A DNA stretch of 64,000 nucleotides from Blasia pusilla (lineage: Eukaryota), in NCBI GenBank assembly GCA_050084515.1, contig CM114271.1, positions 10,230,001-10,294,000 of the forward strand, given 5' to 3'. Positions 6,170 through 45,629 of the stretch are shown here, one piece after another. Under the pieces are notes generated by a model. The model was not told the origin of the DNA and searched no databases. It worked only from the letters and a program-made list of their open reading frames with translations. A program made the translations under genes and the position numbers. The first letter of the stretch is position 1, and each line of letters opens with the position of its first letter.

Positions 6170-6174
6170 AGCAC

Positions 6175-6449
<275 letters not shown>

Positions 6450-7883: not shown

Positions 7884-8527
<644 letters not shown>

Positions 8528-8528
<1 letters not shown>

Positions 8529-8543
8529 CAAAGAGAGGATGAG
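8528..8543 (+). promoter_or_regulatory. Putative self-priming primer-binding site of copy 1
   Basis: ACAAAGAGAGGATGAG directly after A1 is complementary (15/16) to CTCATTCTCTCTTTGT at 8353-8368. Confidence 0.65.
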
Positions 8544-10009
8544 AGGATGAGAGAGCTTCAATGGAGGAGCTTGCTGGTTACTCGCTATTGGTGCAGGTTG
8601 GGGAATAAGTTCCCAATTCAGCGGCTCATAGGAGTGCTCACCGGAGCAAGCGCTACTTATTTTTATTCTTTTCCATTGCCGATTTTTTGTGCGGAAGCGC
8701 TGCCCAAATTTCTTTAAAGATGAAGTTTGGGGGCAGATTTCCCCATTCCACTGCTCTCGAGAGCACCACGTAGCTTTCTGGTTTGTGATTTTACAGATCT
8801 GAAGTTTTATGTGGAAGAAAATAGCGTGCAAGCACTATCAATTTTGTCCAAGGAGTGCAGATCTGAAGGGTTGCACGACTGTTCCCTTCAGTTTTTGTGG
8901 GAAAGTCGAATGAAAGAAAAAAAAGACAATGTCATAGATCACAAAGCTGTGCATATTGTGGATTTAATGGTGCGTGATTTTGAGGTGTGAGCAAAAAGTT
9001 ATGGTCAATCTTGCAAAACTTCCATTGCTAGGCGATTTCTAGGGTAAAATGGTTCAAACCCTAAACTAGCCACCACACCGGCAACGGCCGTCGTAGTCAT
9101 AGTCGCCGTCACCATCAACAGTCCACCATCATCTTCAATGATCCACCTTTGCCATCACCATCGCCGTTTGGCCATTGTCCGCCATTGGTTGCCATTGCCA
9201 TTGCCGCCATGACGGAGTGGATGGTCTTTCACAACGATCGTTGATTCTCTAACTTGAGCCGCCAACACGTACTTTGTTGTGGCCACGGCCACCATCGTAG
9301 TTTGTCATCAACCAGTGATGGCAGGTGACCTCGCGTTGATGGTGTTTGAGTTTTCATCTGCTATGTTGTGATTGGTAGCCGCTTGACGATGATCAAGTAG
9401 CGTGCCATGACGCCCATAACCATAACGCGTCACTGATTGTCGCGCCGTGCCGCTTGTGGCCGCACCGCACCATCTCAATCATGGAGCCGATCCTTCACTA
9501 AGGTATAGAGTGTGTATATTGCTGATTGAGGAGGGTATGCCGCGGAGTGCCGAATCACATTATCGAGTTCCGTGCCGTTCCATGCCGCATCGTACCACTG
9601 GATCCGCACCGCATAATAAGGAGATTTGAGCATTGTCAGTACTAGAGAGGTAGGGGCTGATTGGAGAATTTTGTCGTTAGGACCGAGTTGGGGTCAAGGT
9701 TTGCAGTTGCTAAGGAGCGATCGACATTTATTCAGGTTACCCATTCTGGTCTTTTGCCTATATGTGTCAGGGAATTATGCGTATTGGGTAGTTATTTGGA
9801 ATATTTGGTTTCCTGCAGATGCTAAGAGCATCTTTGATGTATGGGTTTAGAGGACATAGATTTGTGTAGGGTGTCCAAAGTTAAGGGTATGTGTTGTTCA
9901 TGAGATGATAGGACAGTAGTTGATTTGCCGCACCACGCCGCTTGTTGTCACACAACACACTTCTTAGTGAGAGAGAGTGTAGATTGAGTTCCGCATATTA
10001 TTCTGAGTG

Positions 10010-11227
10010 TGTGATACCCACAATTTTGTAATCTTGAAGAATATATCTTTTTATTCAACGAAGACTCTTGTATATTATGATTTTGATTATGATTATTTAT
10101 TATTATGAAGAAGAATAAGTGAATCACGAAGCTCTTGGGACAAGGCAGAGAGATGGAAGATCAAGGATTTGCCTTAGAGGAGAGAAAAATGCAATAACGA
10201 AGTCTCAAGAAGCTTAACGAAGCTTAACGAAGATGTACGAAGCTCTGTCTATGAAGTGCTTTGCTACATAACGAAGCATCACGAAGAAAAGAAGAACGAA
10301 GTACTTCGCTCTTTAACGAAGCGCGAAGCACGAAGTACGAAGCACAAGAGATAAGAATGAAGCATGGAGTACTTCGTTCTCCTGAAGTCCAACAAAGTGA
10401 AGCTAAGAAGGACTGTGATTTCAAGAGACACATGTTAAAACAGTTAGACTAGGAAAGGGCGCGACCCTTTGTATCAAATTGGTAGTTAGAACAGTTTTGT
10501 ACTACGGATTCAGAGGGATCATAGGAAGAGCTAAGAGAACCATAGATCTAGGTAGTTAGAAACAATGAAGAGACACTAGCTTCATCAAGAACGTTTCGAA
10601 TCTTTGGATCACTTCCACTCCAACGAATATTTAAGAAGCAAGGCAGAAGCCATTATTATCATTCTTTTACGAAGTCCTTATGTTGTAGGAATGGTCCGAG
10701 CAAGAGAGTAGTACCCTCTCGAGCTTGTATACACTTTGAAGCTTTCTCGTTCTTGATGGAGTAGTAAAGCAATCATTCATTCATTCTGATGTGCGATGCT
10801 TATGTCTGAGTATTCTTTTTGGGTCTGTAGAATGAGGAGTGAACCAGGCGAACCTTTCTCATCAGTGAAATTATCAACATGAGTTGTAGGAAATCTGTTT
10901 GACAGAGAGTAACCTGCCGAGACGGATTGAGTTCTGAAAGTAGGAGAAGCCAGCTTTTGTGTTGAGATCTCTGTGAGGTTTCTTGATGTCGAGAGGAAAA
11001 TCTACCTGAACATGCTGTCAATTCCACTAGAGAGAATCAAGAAAAGATCCTTTGGTTCTAAGAAAGATCATAAGATATTGATAAGACATTGAATATAACT
11101 CACACACCTTTAAATACAACTATTACAACAGAATTGTAATTCCGAACTCTCTTTTCATCAAACAATGATCCTCTTGGGGATCGAACTTACTAAATCAACT
11201 ATAAAATAGAAACACTTATACATTACA
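10010..11227 (+). mobile_element. Solo LTR of Athila-like family D
   Basis: TGTGATACC...CATTACA with perfect 5-bp TSD GAGTG (10005-10009, 11228-11232). Matches the LTR at 15376-16649. Confidence 0.95.
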
Positions 11228-11349
11228 GAGTGATTGATTGATTACTCCATGATCACGTCAAAGGGGCACGAGGGTCATCACGATGTCATTTTGGGACTTT
11301 GAGAGGTGAGGTGGTGGACCCGAGAGTAGCTCTACAAGTTTTACGAGGA

Positions 11350-11830
11350 GTGGCATGAGGTTTCGAGGGTCTCCACGTGAGAGACTACCTCAACCTCCTT
11401 TAGTGTCATCTTTAGACAAGGGGGAGAGTGTAGAGGAGTGTGTTACTACATTACCACACACAATTATTTGTCCTACCGCTTGGGAGTATGAGATGGATGA
11501 TCGGGGTGGAGGACTGCGTAGGTTTTTGGGTGCTATAGGCACTATAGGGCTACACCACTTCATTGCGTAGTTTAGGAGTTGGTATGACTCATAGCGAGCC
11601 ATGAACTCTAGAGAGGTCAACCTGTTTATAGCATGGAACGGTATGTTCCACCACTTAGTGGGGGCACCCATGGATGATTACCATGAGTTCTCCCACATAT
11701 ATGCCTAGAAGATTGAGGCATTGCGACTCTACTATGACCCACACTATATATCATGGACAAAGCCATTCCCAGATGATGAGGAGGAGGAGTCATGAGAGGC
11801 TACTTCCTCTTCCACTAGTGACGTTTTAGG
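11350..11830 (+). pseudogene. gag: gag remnant of DNMT-Gypsy copy 1
   Basis: LRRFLGAIGTIGL...FIAWNGMFHHLVGAPMDDYHEF aligns with PRRYLGAVGTIEL...FLAWKGLFQRLEGPPMDDYHEF in ORF 36897-37889. Confidence 0.8.
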
Positions 11831-11983
11831 AGGGATAACTTGCATTGGAGTAGTTCTCTTCTAGTTTTTTTAACTATGGTTAGTTCTGCAAACTATGGTT
11901 GGAAGTTTATCATAGTTACAAGTCTCAGTTAGTTTACTAGTTACCTCTTTAACTATTCTTGTGAGTTTTGGTTATGCTTAATT

Positions 11984-12130
11984 GTGCACATGGTGTCTTT
12001 GGCCTACCCCTTTGTCTTTGGCTTTGTTGTCTTTATCCTGCACATGGTGTGCTGGCCTACCCCTGTTGTGCTGGCTTGTTGTGTTGTCCTGCTCATAATG
12101 TGCTAGCCTATTCCTGGTGTGCTGGCCTGC
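11984..12130. repeat. Short tandem repeat, about 3 degenerate units of ~50 bp
   Basis: Recurring GCACATGGTGTGCTGGCCTACCCC...TGGCTT unit. Confidence 0.7.
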
Positions 12131-12139
12131 TCAGCCAGC

Positions 12140-13197
12140 CAAAAAATACCGTTAAAAATACCGTTAAGAAAATCTTGGCCGCACGTTATTGGTGGCCAAC
12201 TATGTACAAAGATGTAGGTAACTTTATTCAAAGTTGTGATGCATGCCAAAGAGCAGGTCGACCAACGGCTACCTCAAGGTGGCCTTTGATACCCATCATG
12301 CCGCTAGCGCTACTTGAAAAATGGGGTATTGACTTTGTGGGCCCCATTTCCCCCGCTACTCGCCACATAAGGCGAAAATATATTTTGATAGCTACCAACT
12401 ATTGTACCAAGATGGTGGAGGCGGTGGCTACGCGCAAAGATGATAGTGAGGCTATGGTCAAATTTTTATACGAAATGATTATCACCCGGTATGGTTGCCC
12501 GTTGGAAATAGTAAGCAATCGAGGCACCCATTTTCTAAACCAGACTATTCAGTCTTTAACGTCACACTTTCTCATTAAGCATTGGAAGACCACGCTCTAC
12601 AACCCTAAAGCCAACGGGTTGACTGAAAAATGTAACGGCCTGATCTGCCAGATATTGAATCAATTGATGGTTACATATTCCTATGATTTGGACATGAAAA
12701 TCTCCGCGGCTTTGTGGGCATACCAAACAGCCAAGAAGATTACTACAAAGTATACCCCGTTCTTCTTGACTTATGGCATTCATCCCTTAACACCTATTGA
12801 ATGGGCTTTGCCCACTTATCGAGTGTTGGAAGGAACAAGAAAGGAGGCGATCGGCGAGGTTTTCCAGGGAAGGAATGAGACCTTAGTTGCGTTGGAGGAA
12901 GCACGCACGTTGGCTTTACGCCAGACCAAACGTGTGCAAAACGAACGCAAGCACCAATACGATTGACATCTCCGGCCGCAATCTATAAGCGTTGGAGACC
13001 TGGTGGTGTTGTATGATAACCGTCGGATAAAGTTCCCCGGAAAGTTAAAATTGAAGTGGATGGGACCTTATCGGGTATTGTCCATCTATGATAACGGATC
13101 ACTGCAGTTGGGGACCTTACAGGGCAAATCCCTGCCCACTCGTGTCAATGGGATGCATGTTTGGCGGTATCATGAGCCTCAACCCTACCCGGACTGA
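12140..13197 (+). pseudogene. pol: Gypsy integrase (rve core and GPY/F motif)
   Basis: YWWPTMYKDV...CDACQR, WGIDFVGPI, YGCPLEIVSNRG, YNPKANGLTEK, WMGPY. Confidence 0.95.
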
Positions 13198-13481
13198 AAC
13201 CGGAGGGAAGGGGGTGAGCGAGTGCCTGAAGCTTTGCAAAGGCGCGAAGCGCGATGTATGGGAGCTTTGCAGATGCGTGAAGCGCGAGAGTATTTGAGCT
13301 TCGCAAAAGAGCGAAGCGCCAAACTGACTATTGCACTCCCGGCACCAAGGCCAAGAACCCGCACAATGCTGGGACTATATAAGTGTCCCTACTTAACCGG
13401 ACGGGTATTTTCATGGACGGAGTCACCACAAAGTTGCGTAGCAGACCAAAGCGGGGCGTTCACTGAGATCGACCTACCAGC

Positions 13482-15168
13482 ATGCCTCGTGAAGACTCCA
13501 CGTCCATTCTGCGAAGTGCGGCCATGCCCATGGTCAAGCTGTCACCAGAGTTGGTCGAAGAGCTTGAGGAGCAATCTTTGGCAAATTTCTTTCAAGAAAA
13601 TTGGACCTTGACATCCGGGGAACTCCTCAGGGAGCTTCGTTCCTCGACTGCATCAGCCAAGTTTTGCTGAAAGGGTTTTCGGTATCGAGCTCATCCACAA
13701 CAATGGACGCCGGATGACTGGCGAGCAACTTATATGCTCCCGGCCGCTCTAGAGTTTGAGTATGACACCGAATTTATGGTAAAGCACAAAGATTTGTTGG
13801 CACTCGATTGTGTAACGTCTGATCGCCTTGGCAGGAATGGCTACAAGGCTACTTCGTTGTCTCCGCCATTTTTTGGACAGTTTTGCAAGCATGTGATGAC
13901 TTTGTTTTATCCTGCTCGTTCTTACTACCTGACGAATAAGCTCGTCTAGATGTGCTATATCCTTTGGAATCAGCACCTGGACCCTGAAGCACTGGGAGTC
14001 GACTTTGCTTCTTTTGTGGACGGGCACGTACGCGCAATGCTGGAAGCACTTCATCCGAGCACGAAGTCCTTCTTGTCTCCTTTTTTTAATCCATCTGTAT
14101 ATTTATAAGCAGGAATTGACGGCCGATGAGGCGCTGGATTGGTCGCAAGTCACTCCCGTCTGCTTGCCAAGAAAGAGCGGAACGGTCACTAGTGGGAGCC
14201 GTGAAGTCACCCCGCCACGCGAAGCAGCCCCAAAGCAACATCCGCATACTTCGGCTTCAGGGAAGGCCGAGGAGTTCACCGAATAGCCAAGACCAAAGCG
14301 CGGCATAGTCAATTTCAAAACACCCTCTGAACCAGAGCCCGCAACTCAGGAGGACTCCGACAAGAGCCTCGTGCTAACGATCACCGTCCTGCTCTTCGTC
14401 TCATGTCCCAAACAGCCAACGATATGGTGTGGTTCCTGAATTTGGCTGTCCCGGTCATAAATCAACTACAACATGTTCTCCACCTGGAAGACACAACGGT
14501 GGTGGACCAATATTTACAAGCCCTTGATGACCTCAACTATAGGGCCCAAGCTTCGTTAGAGAACAAAGCACAGCGCAAAGTGGCGGAAACAAATCTTCAG
14601 CTGCGGGATCAAGAACTCGAAGACACTAAGACGACGCTTTGTAAAGTTCTAAGCGACTTGGTCCAGAGTCAGTACAAAGCACGGAACGCACGCCAATGGG
14701 AGAGCTTGGTGATTAACATGGAGTGTGGGGCTGATTTTTTTAGCTTCGTAGGTCAAGGAAGCTTCGCAACTGATTCAACAATATCAACACCAAATGCATC
14801 GTATCAGCCACGAATTCAAGAAATTGGCCACACAACATGCTCAGTCTTTGAAGTTGCTTCAAGAACATCAAGAAACAAACAAAGACTTAGTGGCACAGTG
14901 GTCGGAGGCTACAGCTAGGATCGTTGTCTTGGAGGCAGAACAGAAGCTGCTCAATGAAGTGCAGTTAGATCCGGAAGATATGAAGGAGTTAGTCGACGAA
15001 GCAGGCAAGAATTTCGATCATCAGATGAGCGAGGAGATCGCCTATCTCAACAAACATTGGAAGTGCCAATTTGACAACCATACGAAGTCTCTCCCGGAAG
15101 TTGTTCCCAACCTCTCGATTACTCTTGAAGAACTCCCACTATTTACTCCATCCGATGTCTTAGTCTAG
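13482..15168 (+). pseudogene. Extra post-pol ORF of the Athila-like element, unknown function
   Basis: Run of sense ORF fragments between integrase and PPT, protein-level similarity to 7538-7740 (-) plus 2917-4430. Confidence 0.75.
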
Positions 15169-15375
15169 AACAAAGTATTAGGAAGTTTGCTAGTTGTTAA
15201 CAAATGGCGAGAGAGAATGCAAAATCACACCCCCAATATTATCAACAAAACTTCCACTATTCATGGTCGTTTTGCGCCTACACATGAGTTTGATAGTTTA
15301 GATAATACTTTTATGGAATTAGAAGAAACATCCTGAAGTGTTCGCCGGGGCGGCTCACATTTGAGGGAGGGGGTA

Positions 15376-16649
15376 TGTGATACCCAAACTTTCGTACTTT
15401 TGAAGAAATACATCTGTTTATTCAACGAAGACTTGTATATACATTATGGTTATGATTATTATATATTATTATGGAGAGGAATGAGTTAGATTAGAGTGAA
15501 TCACGAAGCTCCAAGGACAAGACAGAGAGATAGAAAATCAAGGATTTGCCTAAGAGGAGAGGAGAATAAAAAAACAAAGTCTAAACACCCAGCAAGAAGC
15601 TTTGGAAGGACAACAAAGCTCTGTTAAGCTCTGTCTATGAAGTGCTTTGCTCCTGAACGAAGCATAACGAAGCATGAAGAAGAAGAGAAAAAAAATACTT
15701 CGCTCTTGAACAAAGCTTGAAGAACGAAGCACGTGGAACAAGAACAAAGAATGGAGCACTTCGTCTTCAAATCAGGAGAAAGAGCTTCGTCCTCAAGCAA
15801 AGCAAAAGAGGTCCAGACTTATCAGCGAAGCAAAGCTAAGATTGACAGTGATTTCAAGCGACACATAGTTAGAACAGTTATAATAGGAATATGCGCAACT
15901 CTTTGTATCAGATAGGTACTTAAGACAATTTTGTTATGCGGATTCATAGGGATCTAAGGAAAAGAGAGGAGCACCATAAATCTAGGTAGTTACAAATGTT
16001 GAAGAGACACGAGCTTCATCAAGAACGCTTCAAATCTTTGGATTACTCCTACTTTAGAGAGTATTTAAGAAGCATGGAAGTAGCTATCATTATCATTCTT
16101 TTACGAAGTCCTCATGTTGTAGGAATGGTCCGAGCAAGGGAGTAGTACCCTCTTGAGCTTGTATACACTTTTGAAGCTTTCTCATTCTTGATGGAGTAGT
16201 AAAGCAATCATTCATTCATTTTGATGTGCGATGCTTATGTCTGAGTGTTCTTTTTGGGTCGGCAGAGTGAAGAGTGAATCAGGCAAACCTTTCTCATCAA
16301 TGGAATAATCAATATGGAGTTGTAGGAAATCTGTTTGACAGAGAGATGGATTGAATTCCGAAAGTAGGAGAAGCCAGCTTTCATGTTGAGGTCTCTGTGA
16401 GGTTTCTTGATATCGAGAGGAAATCTACCTGAGCGTGCTATCAACTCCACTAGAGAGAATTGAGAAAAGAAACCTTGGTACTAAGAAAGATCCGAAGATA
16501 TTGATGAGACATTGAATATAAATCATACACATTTAAATACAACTATTACAACAGAATTATAATTTCGAACTCTCTTTTCATCAAACAATGATCCTCTTGG
16601 GGATCGAACTCAGTAAACGACTGTAAAATTGAAACTCTTATACATTACA
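15376..16649 (+). repeat. 3' LTR, family D
   Basis: Follows the PPT. TGTGATACC...CATTACA. Matches 10010-11227. Confidence 0.95.
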
Positions 16650-17330
16650 AGGAGCACGAGTCTCGTTCTCCAACATACATTTTGGAGAATGTGCCAATTT
16701 TGGGCAATTTGAGGCCTTGTGTGGTGACGAGTGCACATCAGGTGCGTACATGGATCGTCCTGCCAATGTTGTTGGATGCGGTGAGTGTAGGTTCACAAGC
16801 ACATCATCGGTGTCTTTGGTGGACCAACTTGGTACCACAAGAGGTTTTGTTGAGGGCGTATGAGAGAGTGGAGCGCCCCTCCAATTTGTTGGTGGATTCT
16901 ATTGTGGATCTTGGTTGTTGATCATAGGCAGTAAGGCACGATGATCGACCGCCGTTGATTGTGGTCAAGAGGATTGGCATGCCACGAGTAGCCTTTCCCA
17001 CATTGGTGAGTTTTCCTCCTTCCTATGCATTCAAGGAGGCCGGGCCTGGCTTGGTTTGGGATGACTAGGTACAGTTGGTGGAGCCCAATGCCGATGAGCA
17101 AGAGCGAGAGCAAGGGATGGGATTCCCCACAGGAGTAACTATCGTCCCTCTTAGAGGCATCATGACTTCATGTCTTGGGTCAGGCGATGGACCTGAATTG
17201 CTTGAATTGGATTTAGCTTAGAAGAGGTTGAGCAACGTCGTTTGAGGATGCGACAGATCACAACTACTGTGTTGGTGAGCCCCATGCCTCTCGAGAGGAT
17301 TGAGACAGTGGCTGGGGGCGAGACCTGAGG
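16650..17330 (+). pseudogene. C-terminal half of DNMT3-like C5 cytosine methyltransferase (copy 1)
   Basis: YILENVP (motif VI), SQAHHRCLWWTNL (motif VIII region), VLGQAMDLNCL (motif X region). Collinear with 34050-34690 (-). Confidence 0.85.
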
Positions 17331-17354
17331 AGATTGACATACGTGTTTTGACAA

Positions 17355-20263
17355 TTGCAGTTACATGGGCTGAAGCTACATCTAGGCAAGTGCAAGTTCT
17401 TCTATGGCCAGATTGAATACCTGGATCATACAATATACCCAGGAGGCCTTGGTGTGCAACCGACCAAGGTAGAGGCTATTTCACGCATTCCACGCCCTAT
17501 AGATGTGAGTAGAGTTCGTGCATTCATGGGATTGGCAAACTTCTATCGACGGTACGTCAAGGGTTTCAATTTGATTGCAAAGTCGTTGACCTTGTTGACC
17601 AAGGTGGATCAGAAGTGGCACTGGGGGGATGAGCAAGAGAGAGCATTTCAGCTACTCAAGGACAGATTGACATCTGCATCCATATTGAGGAGACCGATCA
17701 AGGGGCGTCCTTTCCAGTTTCATACCGATTGGAGCATATTGGGGCTTGGAGCTGTGCTCACCCTGCATGACAATGATGGAAGAGAGTTCATGGTGGCTTA
17801 CGCTAGTCGCTCAAATAATGTTGCGAAGGCAAAGTATAGCTTGTATGAGGGTAAGTGCTTGGCTGCGGTGTGGGTTATCGCAAATTTTAGGTGTTATCTA
17901 TCTGCCAAACCCTTTACCATCATTACTGATCATCAACCACTTAAGTGGTTGAGGGATTCCGATAAGCTTATAGGGAAGCTTGCGAGGTGGGCTCTTTCGT
18001 TGCAGGAGTATGACTTCTAGGTGGTGCATGAACATGGAACGCTCAACCAGGATGCAAATGGTTTGAGCCGAAATCCATGCCTGAGTCATCAAGATGCAAC
18101 TAGAGCTTGTTGGCATGGAGAGAGTGATGAGGATTTGATGCCAAGATAGCAGGCCTGAGCCTATTTGGGCTTGTTGCTATGGAGAGCTTGATTGCTGAGA
18201 CTTTGATGGCGAGGTCTGATGGAGAGTCCTTAGATCCAAAGGCCGATCAGGAGATGATAGATGGTAGAGATATTCATGACAATGGAGTAGTCTTGGAGTA
18301 TCTGTGTGCACGCAATGTTGCAAGCACAGTGGGTGTTAGCGAGGGGGATCGGATCCTACAGTGAACCAGACGGTTCAGATGGGAGGGGACACATGTGTTG
18401 CGAGTTTGGGAGGATGGTAGAGTACCTGTAGTGCCTTATCCTTCATAGAGAGCAGGTTTAGTGTGTCATGCCCACAAGGAGTTGGATCATTCCGGAGCGA
18501 AGCAGACGTACAAGTTGGGCAGATAGAGTATTGGTGGCGAGGCATGCAGACTGACGTTTAGCACTTTGTTTCTAGGTGCATGGTTTGTGATCGGGTCCGG
18601 GCATCATTCAATGCTCCGACTCAACAATTGCATCCACTTCCAATCATGGGCTTAGGTTATAGATGGAGTTTGGATTTTGTAGGACCTTTACCTTTGACAA
18701 AGCGCCATAGTCGTTATGTGTTAGTGATGGTCGAGCACTTCTCGAAGTGGATAGAGTTGGTTGCATTGCCTGACAAAGCGAGTGAGGGAGTAGCGTATGC
18801 CTACGTAGATCGAGTGCTGAGTCATTACGGCACACGAGCTGAGGTGTTGACAAACCAGGATAGGTAGTTCTACGGGGAGTTTCAGGCCTTGTATGATCAA
18901 GCGTTCATCAAGCATCCCACCACGTCTCCGCTAGTCCATCCCGAGGCGGATGGACTAGCGGAGTGGGTTGTGCAGAGGGTGAAGAGAGGATTATGCAAGT
19001 ATGGCTTGCAGAGAGGTCACCTAGGAGATTGGGACCTCCTGTTTCTATGGTTGGCGATGGGATACAGATTCAGCACGTAGGCATTCTTAGCGTCTTTCTC
19101 ACCGTACTTGCTACTTTATGGCCGAGATCTAGATTTACTTACGGCCATTCGTTGAGATGTTGGTGAGGTATTGACCCTTGATGACCCTGATGTATGGATG
19201 CGAGCATGTTCTCAAAGGGCTGAGTTGTTTTGGAGAGTGATGCCCATGGCGTTTGAGAACTTGGCGATTGCGCAACATCGGGATATGTTGAGTTATGCGA
19301 CTATTAGAGGAGGTGGTTATCGACCTACTATCCAGAGGTTTCATCAAGGAGACTATGCCTACTTGTAGCAAGCTGCTCCCACGACGTTGGATGTGATTGC
19401 AGGGTGCACTATCTTGAGAATGCGTGAGATTTTGCCATCCGATGTTCTCTTATTAGAGGGACGCCATGGTATGGTTTGAAAGGACCATGTATGTAACTGT
19501 GGGCCACATCATCTTCCGAACATTGACGGTACAGTTGATCTGAGAAGAGTGGTAAGAGGAGAGGAAGAGAGGAGAGAGGAGAGAAGAAGAGAGGAGAAAG
19601 GAGAGAGGAAGGTATTGCCAACCCCTAGGGCTCTCTTGGTTTGAAGAGAGTTTTCGACAGGTTGGAGAGAGGAAAGTTTTGACAAGTTGAAAAAGCAATC
19701 TTTTTCCAAAAAAAATTGGTGGTGAAAAAAATTTGATTTTTTTTTTGTAAATTTTTTTTAACGTTTGCAACCCATCGAAGTCCAACGGGTTGCAAGTTGC
19801 AAACGTTAAAAAAAACCCAAAAAGATTATTTTTTTCCTTAACAATAAAATAAAATAATAATAAACAAAAAAATTGTAACCTGTCAAATTCCAAGGGGTTG
19901 CACTAAGTTTCCTTGCTTCAAAAAAATCTCCAAAAACATTACGCACTTATTATCCATAATCTTCATATTTTTTGAAGAGAGTTTCAGGTTTTAGGCCCTT
20001 TGTGCCTTTTTTTTTAAACTAGACTCTCCTCTCTTCCTCTCTTCCTCTCCTCTCTTCTTCTCTCTTGCCAAAATACTAGCCCCCATTGGTCCGAGCTTAG
20101 CCGTAGTTCCTGCATGCTTGCGATGTATGTTGTGTGGTTCTGGCCATGGTGCAGCCACGATGCTAGTCTGTGATGGATGTTCGAGAGGATGGCATGTGGC
20201 ATGTGTGACGCCACCTCTCAGTAAGGTTCCTCACGGACGATGGATGTGTCCCAGATGTACATA
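17355..20263 (+). pseudogene. pol: Partial RT, RNase H, integrase and PHD finger of copy 1
   Basis: GKCKFF..IEYL, VRAFMGLANFYRRYVKGF, TDWSILGLGAVL, TDHQPLKWL, WSLDFVGP, HPEADGLAE. C-terminal CMLCGS...LVCDGCSRGWHVACVTPPL...WMCPRC. Confidence 0.92.
19545..20085. mobile_element. Non-autonomous TIR insertion (Mutator-like MITE) in the integrase-PHD linker
   Basis: GA-rich left end is the inverted match of the CT-rich right end. Imperfect 10-bp flanking duplication TTGATCTGAG / TTGGTCCGAG. The host reading frame resumes after it. Confidence 0.6.
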
Positions 20264-20445
20264 GAGTAGGTAGTTCTAGATTCCGACTTGTGTTTGTGAT
20301 ATGGATGACAAGAAGGCGACTAACGATGGGGCCACATGAGCATCTGACCTTCTTGCTCTTAGAGTCCAATTGATGTATATCATGGTAGGTAGGGATAGAT
20401 GGCTATTTGTGAGTTAGAGGGACCTAACCACTAGCTAGGGGGATG

Positions 20446-21194
20446 ATTGGAGATATTTTGGTACTTCTTGTCTTGTTGTTTGGATGCCATAAGTTAGCAT
20501 GGGATCATGCGTGTTTATGTGTATGTTCGATGACAACCATGTATGTTGTGTAGCGATGTGTATGCGCACGATAGATGTCACGTCTTTTAGGATAGATCCG
20601 GGAGATATAGTAGAGCGCCTTTGGCAATACTAGAGGATAGCTTCGGGAGGTCGAGGATTACATGCTGAGGCCACGGATAGCCTAAGAGAACACGTTTCCC
20701 CTTTGTTTTGGCTCATTTGGAGCCATATAGAGAAACTTACAATTTCAGGTAAGTTTCCATTTGTATTATAGTTGACTTTCCACTTTGGAAAGTGGCCCTT
20801 AACCTACTATTGGAGGTCAAGAGCCAAGGAGGTGACCTCCGAGCATAGGTTACTGAGGAGAGAGCTTGGAAGAGGGAAGGGGGTATACCTCCAAGAGAAA
20901 GAGCTTGAGAGCTCATTCTCTCTTCGTTGAACCTCTTGGCATGAGGCGGCGGAGCTATGGTCTTGCTTGCCTTATGTGTGTAACCCAAGCCTCTCATAAG
21001 GAGAGTGGGTTTGGTTTGACATTAGAGAGAGTGCACACCAAGGAGAGCTTGGTGTGAGATATTGAGAGAGATTTGACCTTATTTTTATTGGAGATATTTT
21101 GGTACTTCTTATCTCATTGTTTGGATGCCATGAGTTAGCATGGGATGGTGCGTGTTTATGTGTATGTTGTGTAGCGATGTGTATGCGCACGACA
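20446..21194 (+). repeat. B1-A2-B2 3' terminal repeat block of copy 1
   Basis: 20446-20573 duplicates 21087-21194. The intervening 20576-21087 duplicates 7884-8528. Confidence 0.9.
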
Positions 21195-28861: not shown

Positions 28862-29240
28862 CACTAGGGCAAGAACCATGCAATTTGTTATTTTTCATTA
28901 CTGATTTTTCATAGGTGAGAGTGGCACGCAGAATTGTTGCCCAATTTTCATTAGAGATTCAATATGGGGGTGGCTTGCTCCATGCTAGTGCTCTTGGGAG
29001 CACCGTGTAGCTCTATGGTTTCTGTTATGATAGGTTTTCAATTTTTATTGTGAGAAATCAGCACGGAAGCGTTGCAAAATTTTTGTAGGAGAAGAGACAT
29101 GGGGCTGCACAACAATCCTCGTTTTATTGGAAGGTTGAATGAAGAAAAAAATTTACTTGTGTTCTATATTTGGAAGCTATACACATTGTGGAAGAAATGG
29201 TGCATAATTTAAACATGTGAGGAAGAAGTTATGAGCATTT
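28862..29240 (+). repeat. Leader fragment of the DNMT-Gypsy family
   Basis: Aligns with 8640-9010. Confidence 0.7.
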
Positions 29241-30004: not shown

Positions 30005-30585
30005 TGTCGTGCCAATCCACATCATCATACAACATACATTGCTGACATACCATACTCACATACATACATAACATAGACGAGAGCATCCACAAACACAAGT
30101 GTACCACAACTGAAATCCGTGAAAGACCTATTGTCATAAAACATGTATATAATCACATACAATCGAGCCAAACCCACTCCACGATGGGAGAATCTAGGTC
30201 GAAGCTTGTAGGAAACACCATAGCCAAGAGCTCTACTCACTACCAAGGCTAACTCCCAACGCAACAGGCTCAACTCAAAGAACTAACTGTTCTTTGAGTG
30301 CACTCCACCTTATATCTTCCAACCTACGAGCGGGCCCTACTGGAAAAGTCACCCTCAACTGAGTAACCCCCAACCCTATGTATGAAATTGCATCTCTACC
30401 TAGACACTGCGGCCCTACATAAGGTATGGCCTCTACTAGCACACTATACTCTACGACATAATCCGTATGGTCATTACGGTGTCGATGAATCCACATCATC
30501 ATACAACATACATCGCTGACATACCATACTCACATACATACATGACATAGACGAGAGCATCCACAAACACAAGTGTACCACAACT
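30005..30585 (-). repeat. B1-A2-B2 3' terminal repeat block of copy 2
   Basis: 30014-30111 is nearly identical to 30488-30585. 30111-30475 is nearly identical to 39313-39676. Confidence 0.95.
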
Positions 30586-30758
30586 CGCCCCCCTAACTGG
30601 CGGTTAGGTCCCTCTAACTCCCCAGGTAGCCCTATACATCTACTACATGCTATACACCTTCTTGGGTGCACGAATCAGAAGGCCGGGTGCCAGGTTGCCC
30701 CATCGTTAGTCGCACATCTGTAATCCATATCATGCAAATATCAAGTCATCTACCTCTC

Positions 30759-32000
30759 CTAAGTACATCGAGGACAAACCCACCTTCCAGTAGGAACAAC
30801 ATCCATACGTGGAGTCAAACACATCATGTGCCAACACCTAGAACACCGATCACACACCAACATACGGGCTGAGTTACCAGCAGACCCACACAACATGCAC
30901 CTCAAGCTAGCTCGTATCATGGCTAAGCTTGGGTCAACAGTACCATCCACATTTGGAAGATGACATGGCGCACAATTACGCACATGGTCCTTCCAAACAA
31001 CTCCATCACGACCCTCCAACATGAGAACTCCATAAGCTAACACCTCGCGCATTCGTAAAATAGTGCGGCCTGCCGTCACATCCAACGTTGTCAGTGCAAT
31101 CTGCTGCAAATAGACGTAGTCCCCCACATGGAACCTACGAATCGATGGTCGATAACCTCCACCCTGAATGGTTGCATACCGCAATGTATCCCTATGTTGA
31201 GCAATGGCAAGATTCTCAAAGGCTGTTGGCATAACTCTCATCCATATCTCTCGGTCATCAAGGTTCACCACCTCACTAGACTCCCAACGAATTGCTACTG
31301 GCAAGTCTAGATCTCGGCTATATAACAGAAAATAAGGTGAGAAGGAAGCCAAGGATGCTTGGCGACTGAACCCATACCCCATGGCTTACCATGGCAACTG
31401 AATATCCCAGTCTCCAAGATGCCCCTTATGCAGGCCATACTTGCGCAATGCCCTCTTCACCGTCTGAACCACACGCTCAGCCAAACCATCCGCCTTTGGA
31501 TGATCTCAAGACGTGGTCTAATGATCAATCAACTCCTTGTCACACAAGACGTGAAACTCACCCTGAAAATCTGTACCCTTGTCGGTCAGCACTTCAGCTG
31601 GTGCACCAAAATGACTAAGCACTCTATCAAGAAACGCATACGCCGTTCCCTCACTTGCCTTATCAGGTAATGCCACCAACTCATTCCACTTGGAGAAGTG
31701 CTCCACCATCACCAAACATATCAATGATGTCGTACAGTCAACGGTAACGGTCTCGCAAAGTCCACACTCCAAAGGTAACCCAAACCCATAATAGGCAAGG
31801 GGTGTAATTGTGGTGTAGGGGCATTGAATGATACCCTCACCCGATCACAAACCATACAACATGACACCAACTGCTGCACCTAAGTATGCATGCCACGCCA
31901 CCAATACTGACCAAGGAGTAAGCTATACGTACGCTTTACCCCAAAATGTCCCAACTCCTCATGGGCATGTCGCACAATGCGCTCTCTCTGAGCCAAATGC
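30759..32000 (-). pseudogene. pol: DDE integrase with C-terminal PHD finger (copy 2)
   Basis: HAHEELGHFGVKRT...YWW (HHCC), VEHFSKW, VLTDKG. C-terminus CMLC-x9-CDRC-x4-HMMC-x14-CPRC (Cys4-His-Cys3). Confidence 0.93.
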
Positions 32001-33816
32001 GGCACTACTCGTACTCTACCATCCTCCCACACACGGAGAATATGTGTTCCCTCCAATCGATACCTCTTAGCACGTTGAAGAACACGATCTCGCTCCTTGG
32101 CACTCACTATGCCTGGCACCCTACTGGTCCATAGGAACTCCAACACCAACGCATCATCATGAATATCACGCTGATCCGTACCGCCACCTCCAACCTTAGG
32201 ATCTGAAGGCTGGCCATCTACCCTCTGACTAGAGTAAGATATCATGTGGTCCTCCATACTAGAGTCCACCCCTAACCAACATAAAAAGGCGGATGCATGC
32301 CAACTTGGCACCATCTCCTCATCAACCTCGCCATGCCATCTAGCCCCAGTTGTATCCTCTTGGCTAGTACATAGGTTCCTACTCAACCCATGAGCATCAA
32401 GGTTGGTTACTCTAGGTCTATGTACCACCTGGAAGTCATACTCATGTAAGATAAGAGCCTACCGTGCAAGCTTCCCTGTAAGCTTGTCAGACTCCATTAA
32501 CCACTTGAGCAGCTGGTGATCAGGAACAAGGGTAAACTGTGTGCCAAACAAGTAGCACCTAAAGTGTGCCATAGCCCACACTACTGCCAAGCACTCTCCC
32601 TCATATGAACTATAGCGTGACTCTGCTGCATTATTCGAATGACTTGCATAGGCCACCACAAACTCCATGTGCTCATCATCATGTTGTGTCAACACCGCTC
32701 CAAGTCCCAACCTACTCCAATCAGTATGTAACTGAAATGGGCGCCCTCTGATAGGTCTCCTCAAGATAGGCGCCGCCACCAACTAGGCCTTAAGCTCCAT
32801 AAAAGCTCTCTCCTGATCATCTCCCCAGTGCCACTCTTGATCTGATTTCAGCAATTGGTTTAAAGGCTTTGCCATAGCACTAAATCCCTTCACATACATC
32901 CGATAGTAGTTCGCCAATCCCATGAATGCTCGAACTCTACTCACATCTACCGGACACGGAATAAGTGTAATAGCCTCCACCTTTGCTTGCTGAACTCCCA
33001 AACCACCTGGATAGATCACATGACCCAAGTACTCAACATCCTCATGGAAGAACTTACACTTTCCTGGATGCAAACGTAGACCATGAGCTTTCAACCGCTC
33101 AAACACCATCTGCAAATGTATCTGATGCGCCTCCACCGTGTTACAGAATACCAAAATATCATCAATGTAACACCAAACAAAATCCAACCCTGCTAGGATC
33201 CTGTCCATCACTCTCTGAAACTCGGCAAGTGCATTCTTCAACCCAAAGGGTAAGAATTTCCACTGGTACAAACAATCCTTGCTATGAGAGTTGACACCCC
33301 AAAATGTTGTTTTGGCCTTGTCACTCTCATGAATCGGCAATTGATGGTATCTCGCCGAAGATCCAAAATCTGAAAATCTTTGCCTGTCCCACCACATCAA
33401 AGATCTCCTCGGTGTAGGCATGGCATACCTATCGCCTTGGTTTGCCGATTGATAGGACGGTAATCTCCACACATCCGCCTATCCGTGTAGTTGCCATGCA
33501 TATCCTTTTTAGCGTGATGACATGTGGTCGATGCATACTCTCCATGTGACAACTCCACTAATCCAGCCTCCAAAAGGTCCAACGTCCTACTCTGAATCAG
33601 GTCCCTCTCCATATCACTATATCGGTAGGGACGACGGAAGATTGGCGTATCACTAGCCAAATCAATCCGTATACCGGGTCCAACCAGAGCACCCAACTCC
33701 TTCATGCTGAAGGCAAAACAACTCCTATAAGCATGTAGGAACTGTGTCAAGCATCGTTTCTCACCTCCCGTAAGCTTGGGCCCAAGTAATGGCTCCCAAG
33801 TCTCCTCCACTAGCAC
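32000..33816 (-). pseudogene. pol: Reverse transcriptase and RNase H (copy 2)
   Basis: RRMCGDYRPIN, LPFGLKNA, YIDDILV, GKCKF, LHTDWSRLGLGAVL, YSSYEGECLAV, DHQLLKWL. Confidence 0.95.
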
Positions 33817-34049
33817 ACTAGAGGAGAGGGCGATGCCATTGGTCTTTCATAACCCCTCACAAGATGGTACACCCTTAGCTACACCATCATCTGAGCAAAT
33901 AACTCCTCCACCAGCATGAGCAACCAAATCCACATGCCCAGCCATCACATCCCATTTATTCCAAGGATACAAAATCCTACTCTCCTCGCCCCCAGCCGAT
34001 GCCTCTACCGTCCCGGTAGCCATCAAGCTCATTACAAGGGGTGGAAGAC

Positions 34050-35040
34050 CCACAGACATAGTCCGAAGTCGACGCTGCTCGGCCATACCAAGACTCAAAA
34101 TCCAAGTCAAACAATTCAGATCCATGGCCTGACCCAACACATGACGTCGTGAAGCCTCATAAATGGAAGCAACCGCTATCACACCACTAGCAAATCCCAT
34201 CCCATGCTCACTCTCATCAGCGTTAGGCTCCACCAACTGTCGCACATGAGAATCCCATACAAGCCCGGGACCACCTTCCCTGTAGGCATGTGACGAGGGA
34301 AAACTCACCAATGTGGGTAGTGCCATCCTAGGCTAGCCCACACGGTTCACCACTGCCATGAGTGACCGATCAATAACCCTCACCACTTGAGAAAGTCGCC
34401 CAGTATCCAAGATACTATCCACTGTAAGGCAAGGATCCCGCTGCACTACATCATATGCTCGACGTAGAACCTCCCTAGGCAACAAGTTTGTCTACCACAA
34501 GCATGGATGATGTGCACGCGAGCCAACTCGCGCTGCATCCAACAACACCATTGGTCCAATCCAAGACCGCACCTCATGAACACTTGCCATCATTTGGGTC
34601 CGAGTGTCACCCAACAATGGAACATTCTCCAGAATGTAAGCTAGAGCATGTGCCTCATGAACCTGAAGATGTCGTAACATCGTAACATCTCCCAAAACAA
34701 TCGAGACCTAGGGTCGTGTAATCCCTCACCACGACCAGCACGTGTATGACCCTGACATGGCCATCCAGCAATCACCAGATCCACATGATCAACCCTCTCA
34801 AGGTCCTCCGCCCCCAACAATGCGATGTGTGACGGCAAAGCACGCTGGTACCCACAAATAGTTGATGGCGGCAACAACTCATGATGTCTCCGCATCAACT
34901 GACCAATCTGTCGGGATGAGACTCTCTGGGCCGTCTCATCTCGCTCCACATACCCGTATCTCCGCACAGAAATACCGGCCTGCAACAATGCAGCCAAACC
35001 AATGCTTATCCCACCAAAGAGATCTAACACACAAATGCCC
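34050..35040 (-). pseudogene. DNMT3-like C5 cytosine DNA methyltransferase domain within the retroelement polyprotein (frameshifted)
   Basis: Motif I ICVLDLFGGI (~35008-35036), motif II YVE, motif IV DLVIAGWPCQG (PCQ 34752-34760), motif VI YILENV (34621-34629), motif VIII region AHHPCLW*TNL, motif X region RRHVLGQAMD. Confidence 0.92.
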
Positions 35041-35456
35041 TCCGGCGGATACTGCCATACAATGGGTGTAGTATCCAAAGGGGATAACCCAACTTGATCA
35101 GAAGTAGGAGTCCGCCGTGGGGCCTCCTCTTCCTCGTGAGGTATAATAGCCTCACACCAAGCCTCCTGCCGTAGTGCACCGCCTAAACTCCAAAGTGGCA
35201 CATCCAACGATGAGGATGCCACTGCTGCAAAAATAGGGACCTCTTCTACCTCCTCATGCACAGGAGAATCCATAGCAGAAACATTACCCTCCAAAAAGTC
35301 TCCTGGCCAAGGGACTACTCCACTAAAACCAGCCACAGATACTAACACTATTGGGGAAGACCCTCCCGGTCGAGCCCCATAAATAAATCTCACAGGAACT
35401 TGGCTCATACGTCCATCCCCGGACTGCCAACCAGGTCTATAAGACGCTGTCTCAGT

Positions 35457-35882
35457 CTAGTAATCCATCTGAAAACCCATCGGGTACAATATTGCTCCTC
35501 CAACTAGTACATCATACGACTCAGCTGATGTGACTACAGCAGATATTCCCAACCGGGAGCTATCAGTCGCATGATCTGGTCTCATCTGTACAGAAAACTT
35601 CTCCCGTGTCATGAATTGAGACCTATCATTGGCTCCTCCAAGTGATGTTTGAATCTGGAATGGGCAAGGCTCAAGCTCTGACCTCTGAATATCCAAACCA
35701 ATACATGCCGCTTTTCCCAACATCAAAGGTTGGGCACCAGAGTCTAACAATACTCTATCTGGTCTATACACCTGTCTTGTAGGACTCACCAATCGGAATA
35801 TCCCACTCCGGTTGTCCAACATACATAGACCAGGTGTAAGCCTCTCACGATCAATGGCTGGTCGGGCTGGTAATGCATCCAT
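35457..35882 (-). pseudogene. Retropepsin-like aspartic protease (copy 2)
   Basis: VLLDSGA catalytic motif and YDVLVG. Confidence 0.9.
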
Positions 35883-37889
35883 CTTCGCCGCTGCTGCCTG
35901 TCAAGTAGCACTAGTACTCAATGCTACACCTGACATAGAGGGTCGCTCCACCGCAATACCCTCATCCACCTCAGCACGTGTAGCAGTAACACCCCCACGT
36001 TCACACAACGTGGCGGCTAGGTGAAATACAGGAGCTAAGTCAACTCCTAAAGCCATCAGCTCCATGGCCGAAAACAATGGGGATCCGAACACTGAAGTTG
36101 CCATCCGCTATACTGCATTGGATGCTGCATCCGTGTCTACTACACGCGATGTAGATGCCTCAATCTCCACTTTCGGCTCAATAGGCTGCATAGGAACCAT
36201 GGATGGAGTCCTAAGCACCTCAGACAACAAGAATGACTGGGGAAGCCTAGCCTGCCTTTGAGCCTCACCCCTCTGTGGGTCCAACTCCACAGTAGCACCA
36301 CGTGGTTTTGACGTTCAAGTGGCTCCTCTCGTAACTGCAGCCGATGCCTCAACCTGTGCTGCACTTGCCATATAAGAGAGATCATCCCCTCCATAAGAGA
36401 TGGAAGCCCTTGCTCCCGAATCTGATCTATGCTGGATACCAGCCATAGTAGCCAACTTCTCCTCCAACTGCTCAATCCTGGCAGCCATGGCTGACTCTGT
36501 TGTAGTGGTAGGGGTAGCCACCGTAGGCTCCAACCACTGGTCCACCTCTACCACCCCTACCACCTCCACCACCTCGGCCTCTCGGAGCTACTCCACCACG
36601 GCCGCGGCCTGATCTCAACTCTGGATGAAGATCAAAGCAACGCTCTCAAGGATGATCTGGTCTCCCGCAATGATCACATTGAGTTGGGTCCGACTGAGGC
36701 CCATCCTCTAAAGTCCGTCTCCCATCCTCTTGGGGACAAAACTTCCTAACATGATCACCTCCACATGTCCAACATGACTGTCCTTGCTGCGGGGCAGCAA
36801 ATGAAGGCAATGGTCTCTACGCAAGTGTCCCTGTAGGACTGGCGACCGAGGTCGTGTGTACCCCCACGACTCCCACTACTACTACCACCACCACTACTAC
36901 GAGAGGCGTGAGGTGGGTGCTGAACACGAAGTAGTAGTTGTATCCCTACTAAATGCGGATGTCACCACTCTCTCCTTCACCATGTTAAGCTCAATCTTCT
37001 CAGATAGAGCAAACACATGGGTCAATGTGGGTGAATCATCACTCATAAGTGTAGCATCACATACCCTGCGGCGCAACTCCCTGTCCAAGATCCCATACCA
37101 AAACTCGACTGCTTGAGCCTCAGTCACACCCTGGGTGACTGAAATCAAACGTCGCATACGAGTGTATGCCTCACGAAGACTCTCACCAGTCTTTCGCTCA
37201 AATTCTTGAAGGCTCCTCAACTTCTCTGTCTTCACTCCCTGATAGTTCTTCTTCAACCTCTTGAAGAACTTTGCAACGGGGATAAACGATGGTGGGGCAC
37301 TAGTACCTCCACTAGTACCCCCACTGGTACCTCCAGTGGTACCCCCACTCCGGCTCGTACTCGTACCACTCAACGTCGGGCTGGCTAGCATAGTAGGAGC
37401 ACTACTACCAATACCACCATGGGTGATAGACACATAGCCTGGAGACCAATATTGTCTCCACGCCTCAATCTCAACAACATGGTCCTTCCTAAACTCATGG
37501 TAATCATCCATGGGTGGTCCCTCAAGTCTTTGAAACAACCCCTTCCAAGCCAAGAAGGGTGTAAACAACGTGGCGTTCCGCAACATTTGCATATCACACC
37601 ACGTATCAAACTCCTGCATGAAGTCCTCCAACTCAATGGTGCCCACTGCACCCAAGTATCTTCGTGGGCCCTTCATGGCCCCATATATCCCGTCCATGTC
37701 CCAAATCAATGGAGCTGCAACACTCGTTAACAACGTAGAAGACTCGGTGTTTGGAACACCCTCGTCCTCCTCTTCATCAACCGTCGAAAGTGGAAAAGGT
37801 AGCCGATACCTAAATCCACTCCGTGTGAAACCACCACTATCCGCACCACGGTCCCCAACCAGACCACCCGACAGCTCCGCGATGACCAA
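35883..37889 (-). pseudogene. gag: gag with two CCHC zinc knuckles and linker (copy 2)
   Basis: GESLREAYTRMRRL (MHR-like). CWTCGGDHVRKFC (~36735-36774) and CDHCGRPDHP*ERC (~36637-36678). Confidence 0.85.
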
Positions 37890-39301
37890 CGCCGATGCCG
37901 CACCACCACCAAATTATCACCACTAAGTAACCAAGTGACGTCGATGTCGCTATACTATTCTAGCTCTACTAGCTATGGATGTAGGCAACCTAACCTGTCA
38001 TCACCACAAGAAGCCTCCCAGAGTCTACTGGTCATCACTCCAACCTCACTACCGGTAGCACACAGGAGTAACACTACTCTCGAAATCAGCATCAACCCTA
38101 ACAATGGGCGCCCAAGCAAAAAGCAATGATGGAGGGGATCCAAACAAAGGAAGTCCAACGACAATCCTCCAATCGCAAATGGAAATCAAGGTAACACAAT
38201 CCACCAAACGTGGCGCCCCCTGAATCCACAAAACCCACCACACAATCCTAATGCAATAGCTACTCCACCGCGGGTCGGTGACGTGCTAGTCGAACTCGCA
38301 GCACCTGAAAATATCACCTGCATGGAGAGGCTACACCGTACTATGCGCTAGAGGTCCATCAACCAAAAACCTGAGATGCATAAAGCGCCTAACACCTCTC
38401 CGAACAGCACCAAATGAGCTACAACAGTGTGTACACTGGCATAGTTAAGAACTCAGCAGTTAAGCGTCTTCCAGGCAGAATAGCCCAAAGATGGGTGACC
38501 AGTTATACAACACTCAATCCACAAATCCTGCAAAAATTGCCTCACGCCCAAGCAAGCAAGCTTGCTTGCTTGCTCCTTGCTCCTTACTCCGCCTCTCACG
38601 CCCACTCGCCCTGAGCTACCACGAGTTGCCTCAAAGCCTCCAATGGGATAGGAGTCTCCAACAATGAATGAGTCACCAACCAACCAGCCCCTCCGATCCG
38701 CTGTCCACCATAGACCTTGAGCTAGTCCGCGAAATTTCGATCAGCAATTACTCCAAAAATCCTCAACCAAAATTGAATATGTTTCAATCGGAATTCAATT
38801 GACCACCATAGCTATCTCTCCACAAAAAATCAGCTACAATCAAGCTCTGTACTCCGAGCTAAAAATCAGACAAACTTGCTGTCCATACACCTCCAGAATC
38901 GCAAATCCGACAGCGCTTCCGCCAAGTTTCATGCACGCAGAAACCTGCAACGCTCCACACACTCAAGCAGATAGCTTCACATGAGATCACAATACAAGTA
39001 GCAATAGGAATCTCTCACCCTATCTGGATGAACTTTAACAGAGCTTCCGCACTCCAAGCTCTCCACATCAGAAAACCGTCGAACACGAACCAGAATCTTC
39101 AATCCTTGATAACTTCCAACTCCCTTGACGAAATCCGGCGATCTAAAGCATGTTGGAAAGCTCTTAGCAAGGCGCTTCTTTCCCAACCAACCACACACTA
39201 GATTCACACCTCCAACATAGGCCACAATCCACGGCTGAGTACATAATCAGCCCTAACCAGATCCTATTGATCTACAATCGAAGCTACCATTGATCTACTT
39301 C

Positions 39302-39313
39302 AGTTCTTTGAGT
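39302..39313 (-). promoter_or_regulatory. Putative self-priming primer-binding site of copy 2
   Basis: Minus-strand ACTCAAAGAACT at the end of A1 is the exact complement of AGTTCTTTGAGT (39486-39475) inside A1. Confidence 0.65.
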
Positions 39314-39676
39314 GAAATCCGTGAAAGACCTACTGTCATAAAACATGTATAGAATCATATACAATCGAGCCAAACCCACTCCACGATGGGAGAATCTAGG
39401 TCGAAGCTTGCGGGAAACACCATAGCCAAGAGCTCTACTCACTACCAAGGCTAACTCCCAATGCAACAGGCTCAACTCAAAGAACTAACTGTTCTTTGAG
39501 TGCACTCCACCTAATATCCTCCAACCTAAGAGCGGGACCTACTGGAAAAGTCACCCTCAATTGAGTAACCCCCAACCCTATGTATGAAATCGCATCTCTA
39601 CCTAGACACTGCGGCCCTACATAAGGTATGGCCTCTACTAGCACACTATACTCTACGACATAATCCGTATGCTCAT
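39313..39676 (-). repeat. Terminal repeat A1 of copy 2
   Basis: Near-identical to 30111-30475. Confidence 0.95.
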
Positions 39677-40698: not shown

Positions 40699-41562
<864 letters not shown>

Positions 41563-45615: not shown

Positions 45616-45629
45616 TTCTCCCAATCCAC

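Follow-up and report, generated by a model that had tools for sequence, protein, structure and literature searches.

A split-repeat element in the Blasia pusilla window

The window analyzed here is a stretch of 64,000 nucleotides from Blasia pusilla (contig CM114271.1, positions 10,230,001 to 10,294,000). Positions 7884–21194 of this window are a single decayed copy of an abundant Ty3/gypsy family whose repeats are split into two parts, A and B, in the order A1-internal-B1-A2-B2. An earlier sequence-only reading had proposed this order, with a purine tract before B1, and strong divergence between the repeats. All parts are present where it had placed them, and A1/A2 are 86% and B1/B2 93.5% identical over aligned columns. 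Given this divergence, the window copy is old. It has lost gag, the protease and part of the reverse transcriptase (RT), its B2 misses 20 nt relative to B1, and it is a dead copy. A second element in the window, copy 2, belongs to a younger sister family (family 2, the window copy being of family 1) with the same layout and codes for gag, a C5-methyltransferase, RT, RNase H (RH), integrase (INT) and a PHD finger.

The window copy is inserted in a host element, labeled Athila-like by the sequence-only reading, which is a minus-strand Ty3/gypsy-type region with protease, RT, RH and INT. The sequence-only reading had allowed for A1 belonging to a different insertion than the 3′ block and had suggested a comparison with empty sites. 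Full-length copies are colinear with the window across 7884–21194, and among 11 further host-element copies, both flanks lie 5–20 nt apart or overlap in 9; the remaining two are L114, which carries a solo A-B, and L121, in which the left flank finds a weak match. Because of this colinearity and the empty sites, A1 and B2 are the two ends of one insertion, and a separate origin of A1 is ruled out. The solo A-B of L114 (G000:C2, ~41128450–41129100) has an AAAG/AAAG duplication of its own and lies ~50 bp from the equivalent site in another host-element copy.

The layout is real and family-wide in this 390-Mb plant genome. All 30 best genomic matches show the same upstream sequence followed by B1-A2-B2. 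The 10 kb behind 20 A1 starts contain five complete A1-internal-B1-A2-B2 elements of 8.6–9.8 kb and two deleted forms with both ends, and two more copies were completed on extension. Of 30 unselected 3′ ends, 27 show the layout, and so do families with a protein identity as low as 46%. An A-internal-B form is present in 3/30 unselected 3′ ends (one with an exact duplication, one with a 3/4 match and one with no A1 in the fetched stretch), and such copies could be explained equally by a double cut or by later recombination of B with B. About half of the metagenome loci also have this form (17/34 in an automatic tally with a few loci misparsed), which might reflect assembly collapse and is not used as evidence; L240/L241, L243/L244 and L249/L250 are duplicates of one place each. 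Local duplications of the 3′ region, consisting of either an additional 3′ non-coding part with B or an additional partial A-B, are seen in L004, L016, L025 and L010.

Full-length copies of both families match gag, C5-methyltransferase, RT, RH, the integrase core and a PHD finger, and the order gag, then RT, RH and INT, together with Ty3-type sequences, places them in Ty3/gypsy. PF00145 (C5-methyltransferase) is found in copy 2, L138 and L079. The HHCC and DDE residues of the integrase are conserved across 22 homologues, and the best match of solved structure is Ty3 Gag-Pol (E 9e-159). A Pfam scan of 80 reading frames of at least 75 amino acids from L138 and L079 found the integrase core (rve) and matched no tyrosine recombinase family, no other nuclease domain and no chromodomain; a PHD finger follows the integrase instead. 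No Pfam match to a protease was obtained in these families. The closest named homologues are from liverworts and up to 82% identical, and homologues are named from Calypogeia, Riccia, Marchantia, Sphagnum, Klebsormidium, Closterium and Chara. Many Marchantia gene models (P0122–P0133, P0135, P0141) represent the gag-methyltransferase part of the split-repeat lineage annotated as ordinary proteins, and may inflate host methyltransferase counts.

Outer ends and target-site duplication

The 5′ ends begin with TG in 24 of 30 loci and the 3′ ends finish with CA in 23 of 30, while the flanks are unrelated. The outer ends TGTC...GACA that the sequence-only reading had claimed are fixed, not variable in position between copies. 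Of 19 copies that have both ends, 16 show an exact 4-bp target duplication, compared with 0 of 342 cross pairs; the three non-exact cases comprise one 3/4 match and two rearranged copies. These 19 derive from 9/20 family-1 and 10/20 family-2 stretches, truncated, interrupted or rearranged ones being left out. Full-length metagenome copies behave similarly, with an exact duplication in 3/4 copies and three of four matching bases in the fourth. Together, TG...CA ends and a variable 4-bp duplication are the signature of DDE strand transfer. Since the family duplicates 4 bp, the imperfect 9-bp flank match that had been considered as a target duplication of the window copy is rejected. The window-copy 4-mers TAAA/CGAA (2/4) lie inside a low-complexity AAGAC repeat and are not decisive for this copy.

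These data also bear on whether the layout could be that of an ordinary element with long terminal repeats (LTRs) composed of A+B, either rearranged by recombination or nesting or moved by a hidden tyrosine recombinase. In its favor, A2+B2 has the TG...CA ends of a normal LTR, and both solo A-B and A-internal-B copies occur. However, A1 is followed by a primer site and not by B, the layout prevails among unselected 3′ ends and in distant families, and the duplications are variable, with no recombinase match in the 80 frames scanned. Layout, duplications and the recombinase scan already refute this explanation, to which we give next to no credence.

A palindromic junction inside the repeat

The internal B1|A2 joint had been read as a right end, a 2-nt spacer and a left end, and this interpretation is confirmed: the window copy has CACGATA-GA-TGTCACG, in which the spacer GA is a mutated GC. 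The family form CACGACA-GC-TGTCAYG holds the 10-bp palindrome GACAGCTGTC. The exact family junction CACGACAGCTGTCAYG occurs 460 times in the genome, compared with 0 occurrences of the reversed control. The spacer is 2 nt long in all 30 family-1 loci (AC 11, GT 5, GC 4, AT 4, other 6). Among 48 family-2 copies, GC (25) is followed by AC (9) and GT (6); three copies have 3–4-nt spacers and four were not parsed. Spacers of 3–4 nt or a duplicated left end are seen in L155, L157, L163 and L179 (family 2). Copy 2 had been described as having a less clean junction. Its junction is indeed decayed in the window, but its family has the cleanest junction of all, with GC in 25/48 copies.

The rate of change in the 48 family-2 copies is ~0.10 for CAG/CTG, the fastest class, versus 0.04 for CG and 0.016 for CHH. 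A variable spacer as in the circles of insertion sequences (IS) was rejected because AC, GT and AT are the expected deamination products of CAGCTG. The palindrome GACAGCTGTC is kept in metagenome relatives at 47, 50, 52, 65 and 81% protein identity, in which A and B differ.

The GC spacer is absent from the inserted ends. Hence, a cut after CA on each strand of the junction would yield exactly the ends that the integrase inserts. The suggestion of the sequence-only reading that the joint resembles an IS3 circle junction therefore holds in part: abutted ends, fixed termini and the loss of a 2-nt spacer are what staggered DDE cleavage would leave. It does not hold for the spacer itself, which is a fixed, RNA-templated GC within a palindrome and not flanking DNA acquired at each event. 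B1|A2 looks like the template copy of an attachment (att) site, whereas the join that is seemingly new in each cycle is A2|B2.

The junction might be opened by another nuclease, of the host or the element, with the integrase restricted to strand transfer. For HIV-1 integrase, internal cleavage needed a tetramer, and an earlier failure to reproduce junction cleavage is noted in the same report (PMC1905944). The putative cut lies, however, exactly 3′ of CA on both strands, which is the integrase position, and no further nuclease domain was matched in the Pfam scan. We therefore consider a separate nuclease improbable.

Displaced primer sites and transcription

In all three diverged families, the purine tract abuts B1 and not the TG end, and the primer site follows A1. 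Two complete LTRs with purine tract and primer site at TG/CA termini are not what these elements have, and B was found upstream of none of 30 A1 starts. A site within A is complementary to the bases that follow A1, and it is the same site in 16/21 family-1, 5/6 family-2 and 3/4 third-family copies. Primer and primer-site sequences differ between families, while their complementarity, and pairing in the predicted fold, are kept. The self-primer site of the third family begins ~25 nt after TATAAAA. No tRNA-type primer site was seen behind A1 by eye. Inspection by eye further shows a hairpin in both families, with the self-primer as its 3′ arm and a repeat of the primer-site sequence as its 5′ arm (window 20893–20927 in A2; L138 ~223–250). 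Judged from sequence, this hairpin could mask the 3′ primer copy in the RNA.

Because the purine tract precedes B1 and the primer site follows A1, the ordinary LTR scheme predicts a complementary DNA (cDNA) of the form B|A-internal-B|A. The working LTR should thus be B+A, and the cDNA ends should differ from the inserted ends. The inserted form would then be a circular permutation of the cDNA, opened at the left B|A.

The RNA data cover 6–12% of each of three runs; the source is a close relative or strain, mostly 90–99% alike. RNA covers the element in sense orientation in the three runs, and 340 reads join the end of B to the start of A, 188 of them with GC. The A-to-B joint (A2|B2) is absent among the 15 joints listed, with 12 weaker joints beyond that list, and read depth drops inside A. 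Taken together, these two observations suggest that B2 is probably not copied from RNA. Joints 7584–8585, 2214–8666 and 1285–1940 of L138 show that internally deleted copies are transcribed as well, and these may be non-autonomous derivatives.

Proposed replication route

From the layout, the duplications, the placement of the motifs and the RNA joints, all of which are observed, we infer a route of priming, joining and cleavage. Transcription would begin within A1 and terminate within A2, in agreement with the sense transcription and the B1|A2 read-through in the close relative. By pairing with the site that follows A1, the first 12–13 nt of this RNA would serve as minus-strand primer, as in Tf1, and the plus strand would start at the purine tract that is seen before B1. 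Ordinary reverse transcription, as established for LTR elements, would give a linear B|A-internal-B|A with ends that lack TG/CA. The two cDNA ends would then be joined, forming A|B. Finally, integrase would open the left LTR by cutting both strands at CA^GC-TG, leaving recessed CA-3′OH ends with 2-nt GC overhangs, and insert these ends 4 bp apart, which would account for the observed duplication and loss of GC. The product, A1-internal-B1-A2-B2, would retain a second att as template for the next round. That cDNA ends are joined and integrase then opens the internal att of the left LTR for insertion is, in our view, the probable explanation, although a clear margin of doubt attaches to the circle and its cleavage.

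The A2|B2 join is the place where such end joining should leave traces. In the intact insertion L281, which is flanked by an exact TCTC duplication, the primer site and 147 nt of leader separate A2 from B2. Such an insert is expected if a right cDNA end that extends too far is joined to the left end. A 19-nt filler is present at the join in L208 (metagenome) and a 13-nt loss in L269 (G000), and small changes at A2|B2 occur in 8 of 69 copies. B1 is nearer its own B2 than other B2 repeats (0.112 versus 0.128), with the own B2 ranked first in 5/30 cases, and in L079 the A1/A2 and B1/B2 pairs are both 98% identical. A 17-nt deletion in 5/30 B2 versus 0/30 B1 was not used because it is biased by the short query B2.

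The same join allows another sequence of events that dispenses with a free covalent circle. After completing the plus strand at the end of A, reverse transcriptase might jump to the start of B over 1–2 nt of microhomology and continue, displacing the existing strand as far as the left att, which integrase would then cut. The att and the product would be unchanged. The direction of synthesis would then pick the left site, which explains the one-sided outcome. Microhomology is indeed available. In families 1 and 2, the base A is the first one of the primer site as well as of B. In the third family, AT stands at the end of A and again at the start of B, with loss of AT in two loci. The long insert of L281 stops at a short match, AG, to the start of B. 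The filler of L208 and the loss in L269 rather resemble repair-type joining. We regard a strand jump as unlikely but as the alternative to be taken most seriously.

A route like that of PAT and Ngaro would also yield one-sided products with no extra rule. In such a route, RNA would read into B2, and the internal B1|A2 would template both ends to give a circle with a new B|A junction; the repeat order, as set out for PAT and Ngaro (PMC4157794), is the same. However, it is B1|A2 that the 340 reads cross, whereas A2|B2 is not among the joints listed and depth falls in A. In addition, the purine tract and self-priming site suit ordinary LTR replication, and a primer site with leader within A2|B2, as in L281, would be unexpected. 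Thus, we hold a PAT/Ngaro-like route to be improbable, if marginally less so than a separate nuclease.

Several observations weigh against joined cDNA ends opened at the left att. A plain 2-LTR circle holds two identical att sites, yet only the left one is used. The mirror product A-B-A-internal-B was not seen, since A and then B2 follow each of the 40 intact junctions sampled, which are the first listed on C1. The changes at A2|B2 are not clearly above background, with six other 10-nt bins having as many or more, and a tree of fresh A2|B2 changes had no power (0/26 branches well supported; L029 left out). Regarding the transcript, the RNA start was not located: reads pile up at L138:205, 34 nt before the predicted start, with no step in depth, and the reads probably mix many copies from the close relative or strain.

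On balance, there is a reasonable though not secure case that in a streptophyte-wide Ty3/gypsy lineage the att no longer lies at the cDNA ends and has shifted to a palindrome within the LTR. This would have made the joining of cDNA ends obligatory, and integrase would routinely open the circle junction, with one of two identical sites chosen by a built-in rule.

Annotation of the window

The features of the window copy and of copy 2 are collected in Table 1. Where the second nested insertion lies (11856–16649), ~2.1–2.7 kb of the split-repeat element are gone, comprising gag, protease and the start of the methyltransferase. The 541-bp insertion at 19545–20085 has GA/TC-rich inverted repeats and an 8/10 duplication, and resembles miniature inverted-repeat transposable elements.

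Table 1. Features of the split-repeat copies in the window (window coordinates).
Feature	Position	Strand	Remarks
Left target-site 4-mer TAAA	7880..7883	+	right counterpart CGAA 21195-21198; 2/4 match
A1 repeat	7884..8527/8	+	starts TGTCAC (left att half); (GA)n expansion 8202-8344
TATA-like motif in A1	8191..8194	+	~25 nt before self-primer in copies without GA expansion; putative promoter
Predicted self-primer ATTCTCTCTTTGT	8356..8368	+	predicted RNA 5′ end
Self-priming primer-binding site ACAAAGAGAGGAT	8528..8540	+	adjoins A1; one mismatch to primer in window copy
5′ leader	8541..10009	+	colinear with full-length copies
Nested solo LTR, unrelated conventional family	10010..11227	+	TG...CA, 5-bp duplication GAGTG
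5′ leader, continued	11228..11855	+	colinear with full-length copies
Nested conventional LTR element, 3′ half	11856..16649	+	integrase 11965-12966, purine tract, 3′ LTR ~15375-16649
Methyltransferase-to-RT remnant	16650..17342	+	then ~0.9 kb deletion
Broken RT end, RNase H, DDE integrase	17343..19544	+	several stops and frame changes
Nested 541-bp insertion in PHD-coding part	19545..20085	+	48-bp inverted repeats, imperfect 10-bp duplication
PHD finger end and 3′ non-coding region	20086..20436	+	
Polypurine tract AGGGGGATG	20437..20445	+	directly before B1
B1 repeat	20446..20573	+	ends CACGATA (family form CACGACA)
Internal att junction CACGATA-GA-TGTCACG	20567..20582	.	spacer GA 20574-20575; decayed from CACGACA-GC-TGTCAYG
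A2 repeat	20576..21086	+	putative RNA 3′ end inside A2
B2 repeat	21087..21194	+	ends CACGACA (right att half); A2/B2 boundary = putative cDNA-end join
Copy 2, younger sister family (family 2), same layout	30005..39680	-	
Copy 2 parts	A1 39680-39314, B1 30585-~30481, A2 ~30478-30112, B2 30111-30005	-	flanks ATGT/ATGC

Conventional elements in the same window provide an internal contrast to the split-repeat family, as their LTRs (10010–11227, 15375–16649 and 44494–45616) have the purine tract abutting TG. Long (GA)n runs are found at 8202–8344, 6325–6445 and 40700–40796. The first two occupy one and the same position in A, a short GA stretch, and the second of them is part of a minus-strand family-1 fragment (6170–6445). 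Family 1 may therefore seed GA microsatellites. Further fragments of the same or related families lie at 50354–50792 (-), 39927–40683 (+), 29733–29985 (+), 28891–29233 (+) and 533–849 (-). Ty1/copia-type fragments (gag_pre-integrs, RVT_2) occupy 60685–63099, with repeats at 58952–59291 and 63616–63954.

Comparison with known systems

The split-repeat layout has once been noted in print and is thus not categorically new. The legend of Fig. 4c in de Mendoza et al. (2018; PMC5890265) gives KnitGypsy-Dnmt3 from Klebsormidium nitens a DIRS repeat structure with Gypsy domains. A Gypsy Pol with a C5-methyltransferase and DIRS-type repeats are shared with the present family. As far as the text consulted goes, that paper is silent on termini, target duplication, junction, primer sites and mechanism, and the term "PHD" is absent from its main text. 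Klebsormidium RT/INT homologues are 39–46% identical to ours. The 30 longer proteins retrieved with the methyltransferase region include none from Klebsormidium. A literature search, outside which most subscription papers and Repbase reports lay, found "KnitGypsy" in PMC5890265 only and no mechanism in print. The internal palindromic att, the displaced primer sites and A2|B2 as putative cDNA-end join make up a replication route that this search did not find described.

Split repeats are otherwise tied to tyrosine-recombinase elements, as presented in PMC4157794. PAT, TOC and Ngaro have the same A1-ORFs-B1-A2-B2 order (ORF, open reading frame) but use a tyrosine recombinase, whereas the present family has a DDE integrase, TG...CA ends and 4-bp duplications. 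Split direct repeats are hence not diagnostic of tyrosine-recombinase elements. Tf1/sushi and the plant element Tcn1 share Ty3-type RT, RH and INT with the present family and, in the descriptions given (PMC7175516, PMC6317226), the same self-priming, by a site complementary to 11–13 nt of their own 5′ repeat. In these elements, purine tract and primer site abut the TG/CA of two complete LTRs, whereas here they abut B/A ends without TG/CA. Two complete LTRs were demanded for a plant reference set (PMC6317226). Finders with this demand would miss the split-repeat lineage in liverwort, moss and algal genomes.

Retroviral 2-LTR circles are widely held to be a side product. Whether they are true integration precursors is a long-running question, and most of the evidence was obtained in vitro or under drug block. 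Foamy-virus integrase is reported to cleave the 2-LTR palindrome, with 2 nt lost on integration (PMC1180852), and HIV-1 integrase is likewise reported to cleave a palindromic 2-LTR junction (PMC1905944). The foamy-virus palindrome with its 2-nt loss is, on this description, a closer analogue of the present junction than that of IS3. The retroviral palindrome forms only when cDNA ends join; here, both genome and RNA carry it within the LTR, and every insertion apparently needs it. As the genomic products require an internal cut, the family offers a natural and apparently obligatory test case, with hundreds to thousands of copies and sense transcripts. If the proposed route is true, this would be a eukaryotic retroelement living by a circle pathway. 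The IS3, IS30 and IS256 families, as portrayed for their copy-out/paste-in transposition (PMC7780238), use a DDE enzyme to integrate a circle, and likewise combine abutted ends, a short spacer and target duplications. Their spacer comes from flanking DNA and varies, and no reverse transcription is involved, whereas the present family carries a fixed GC through RNA and encodes RT and RH.
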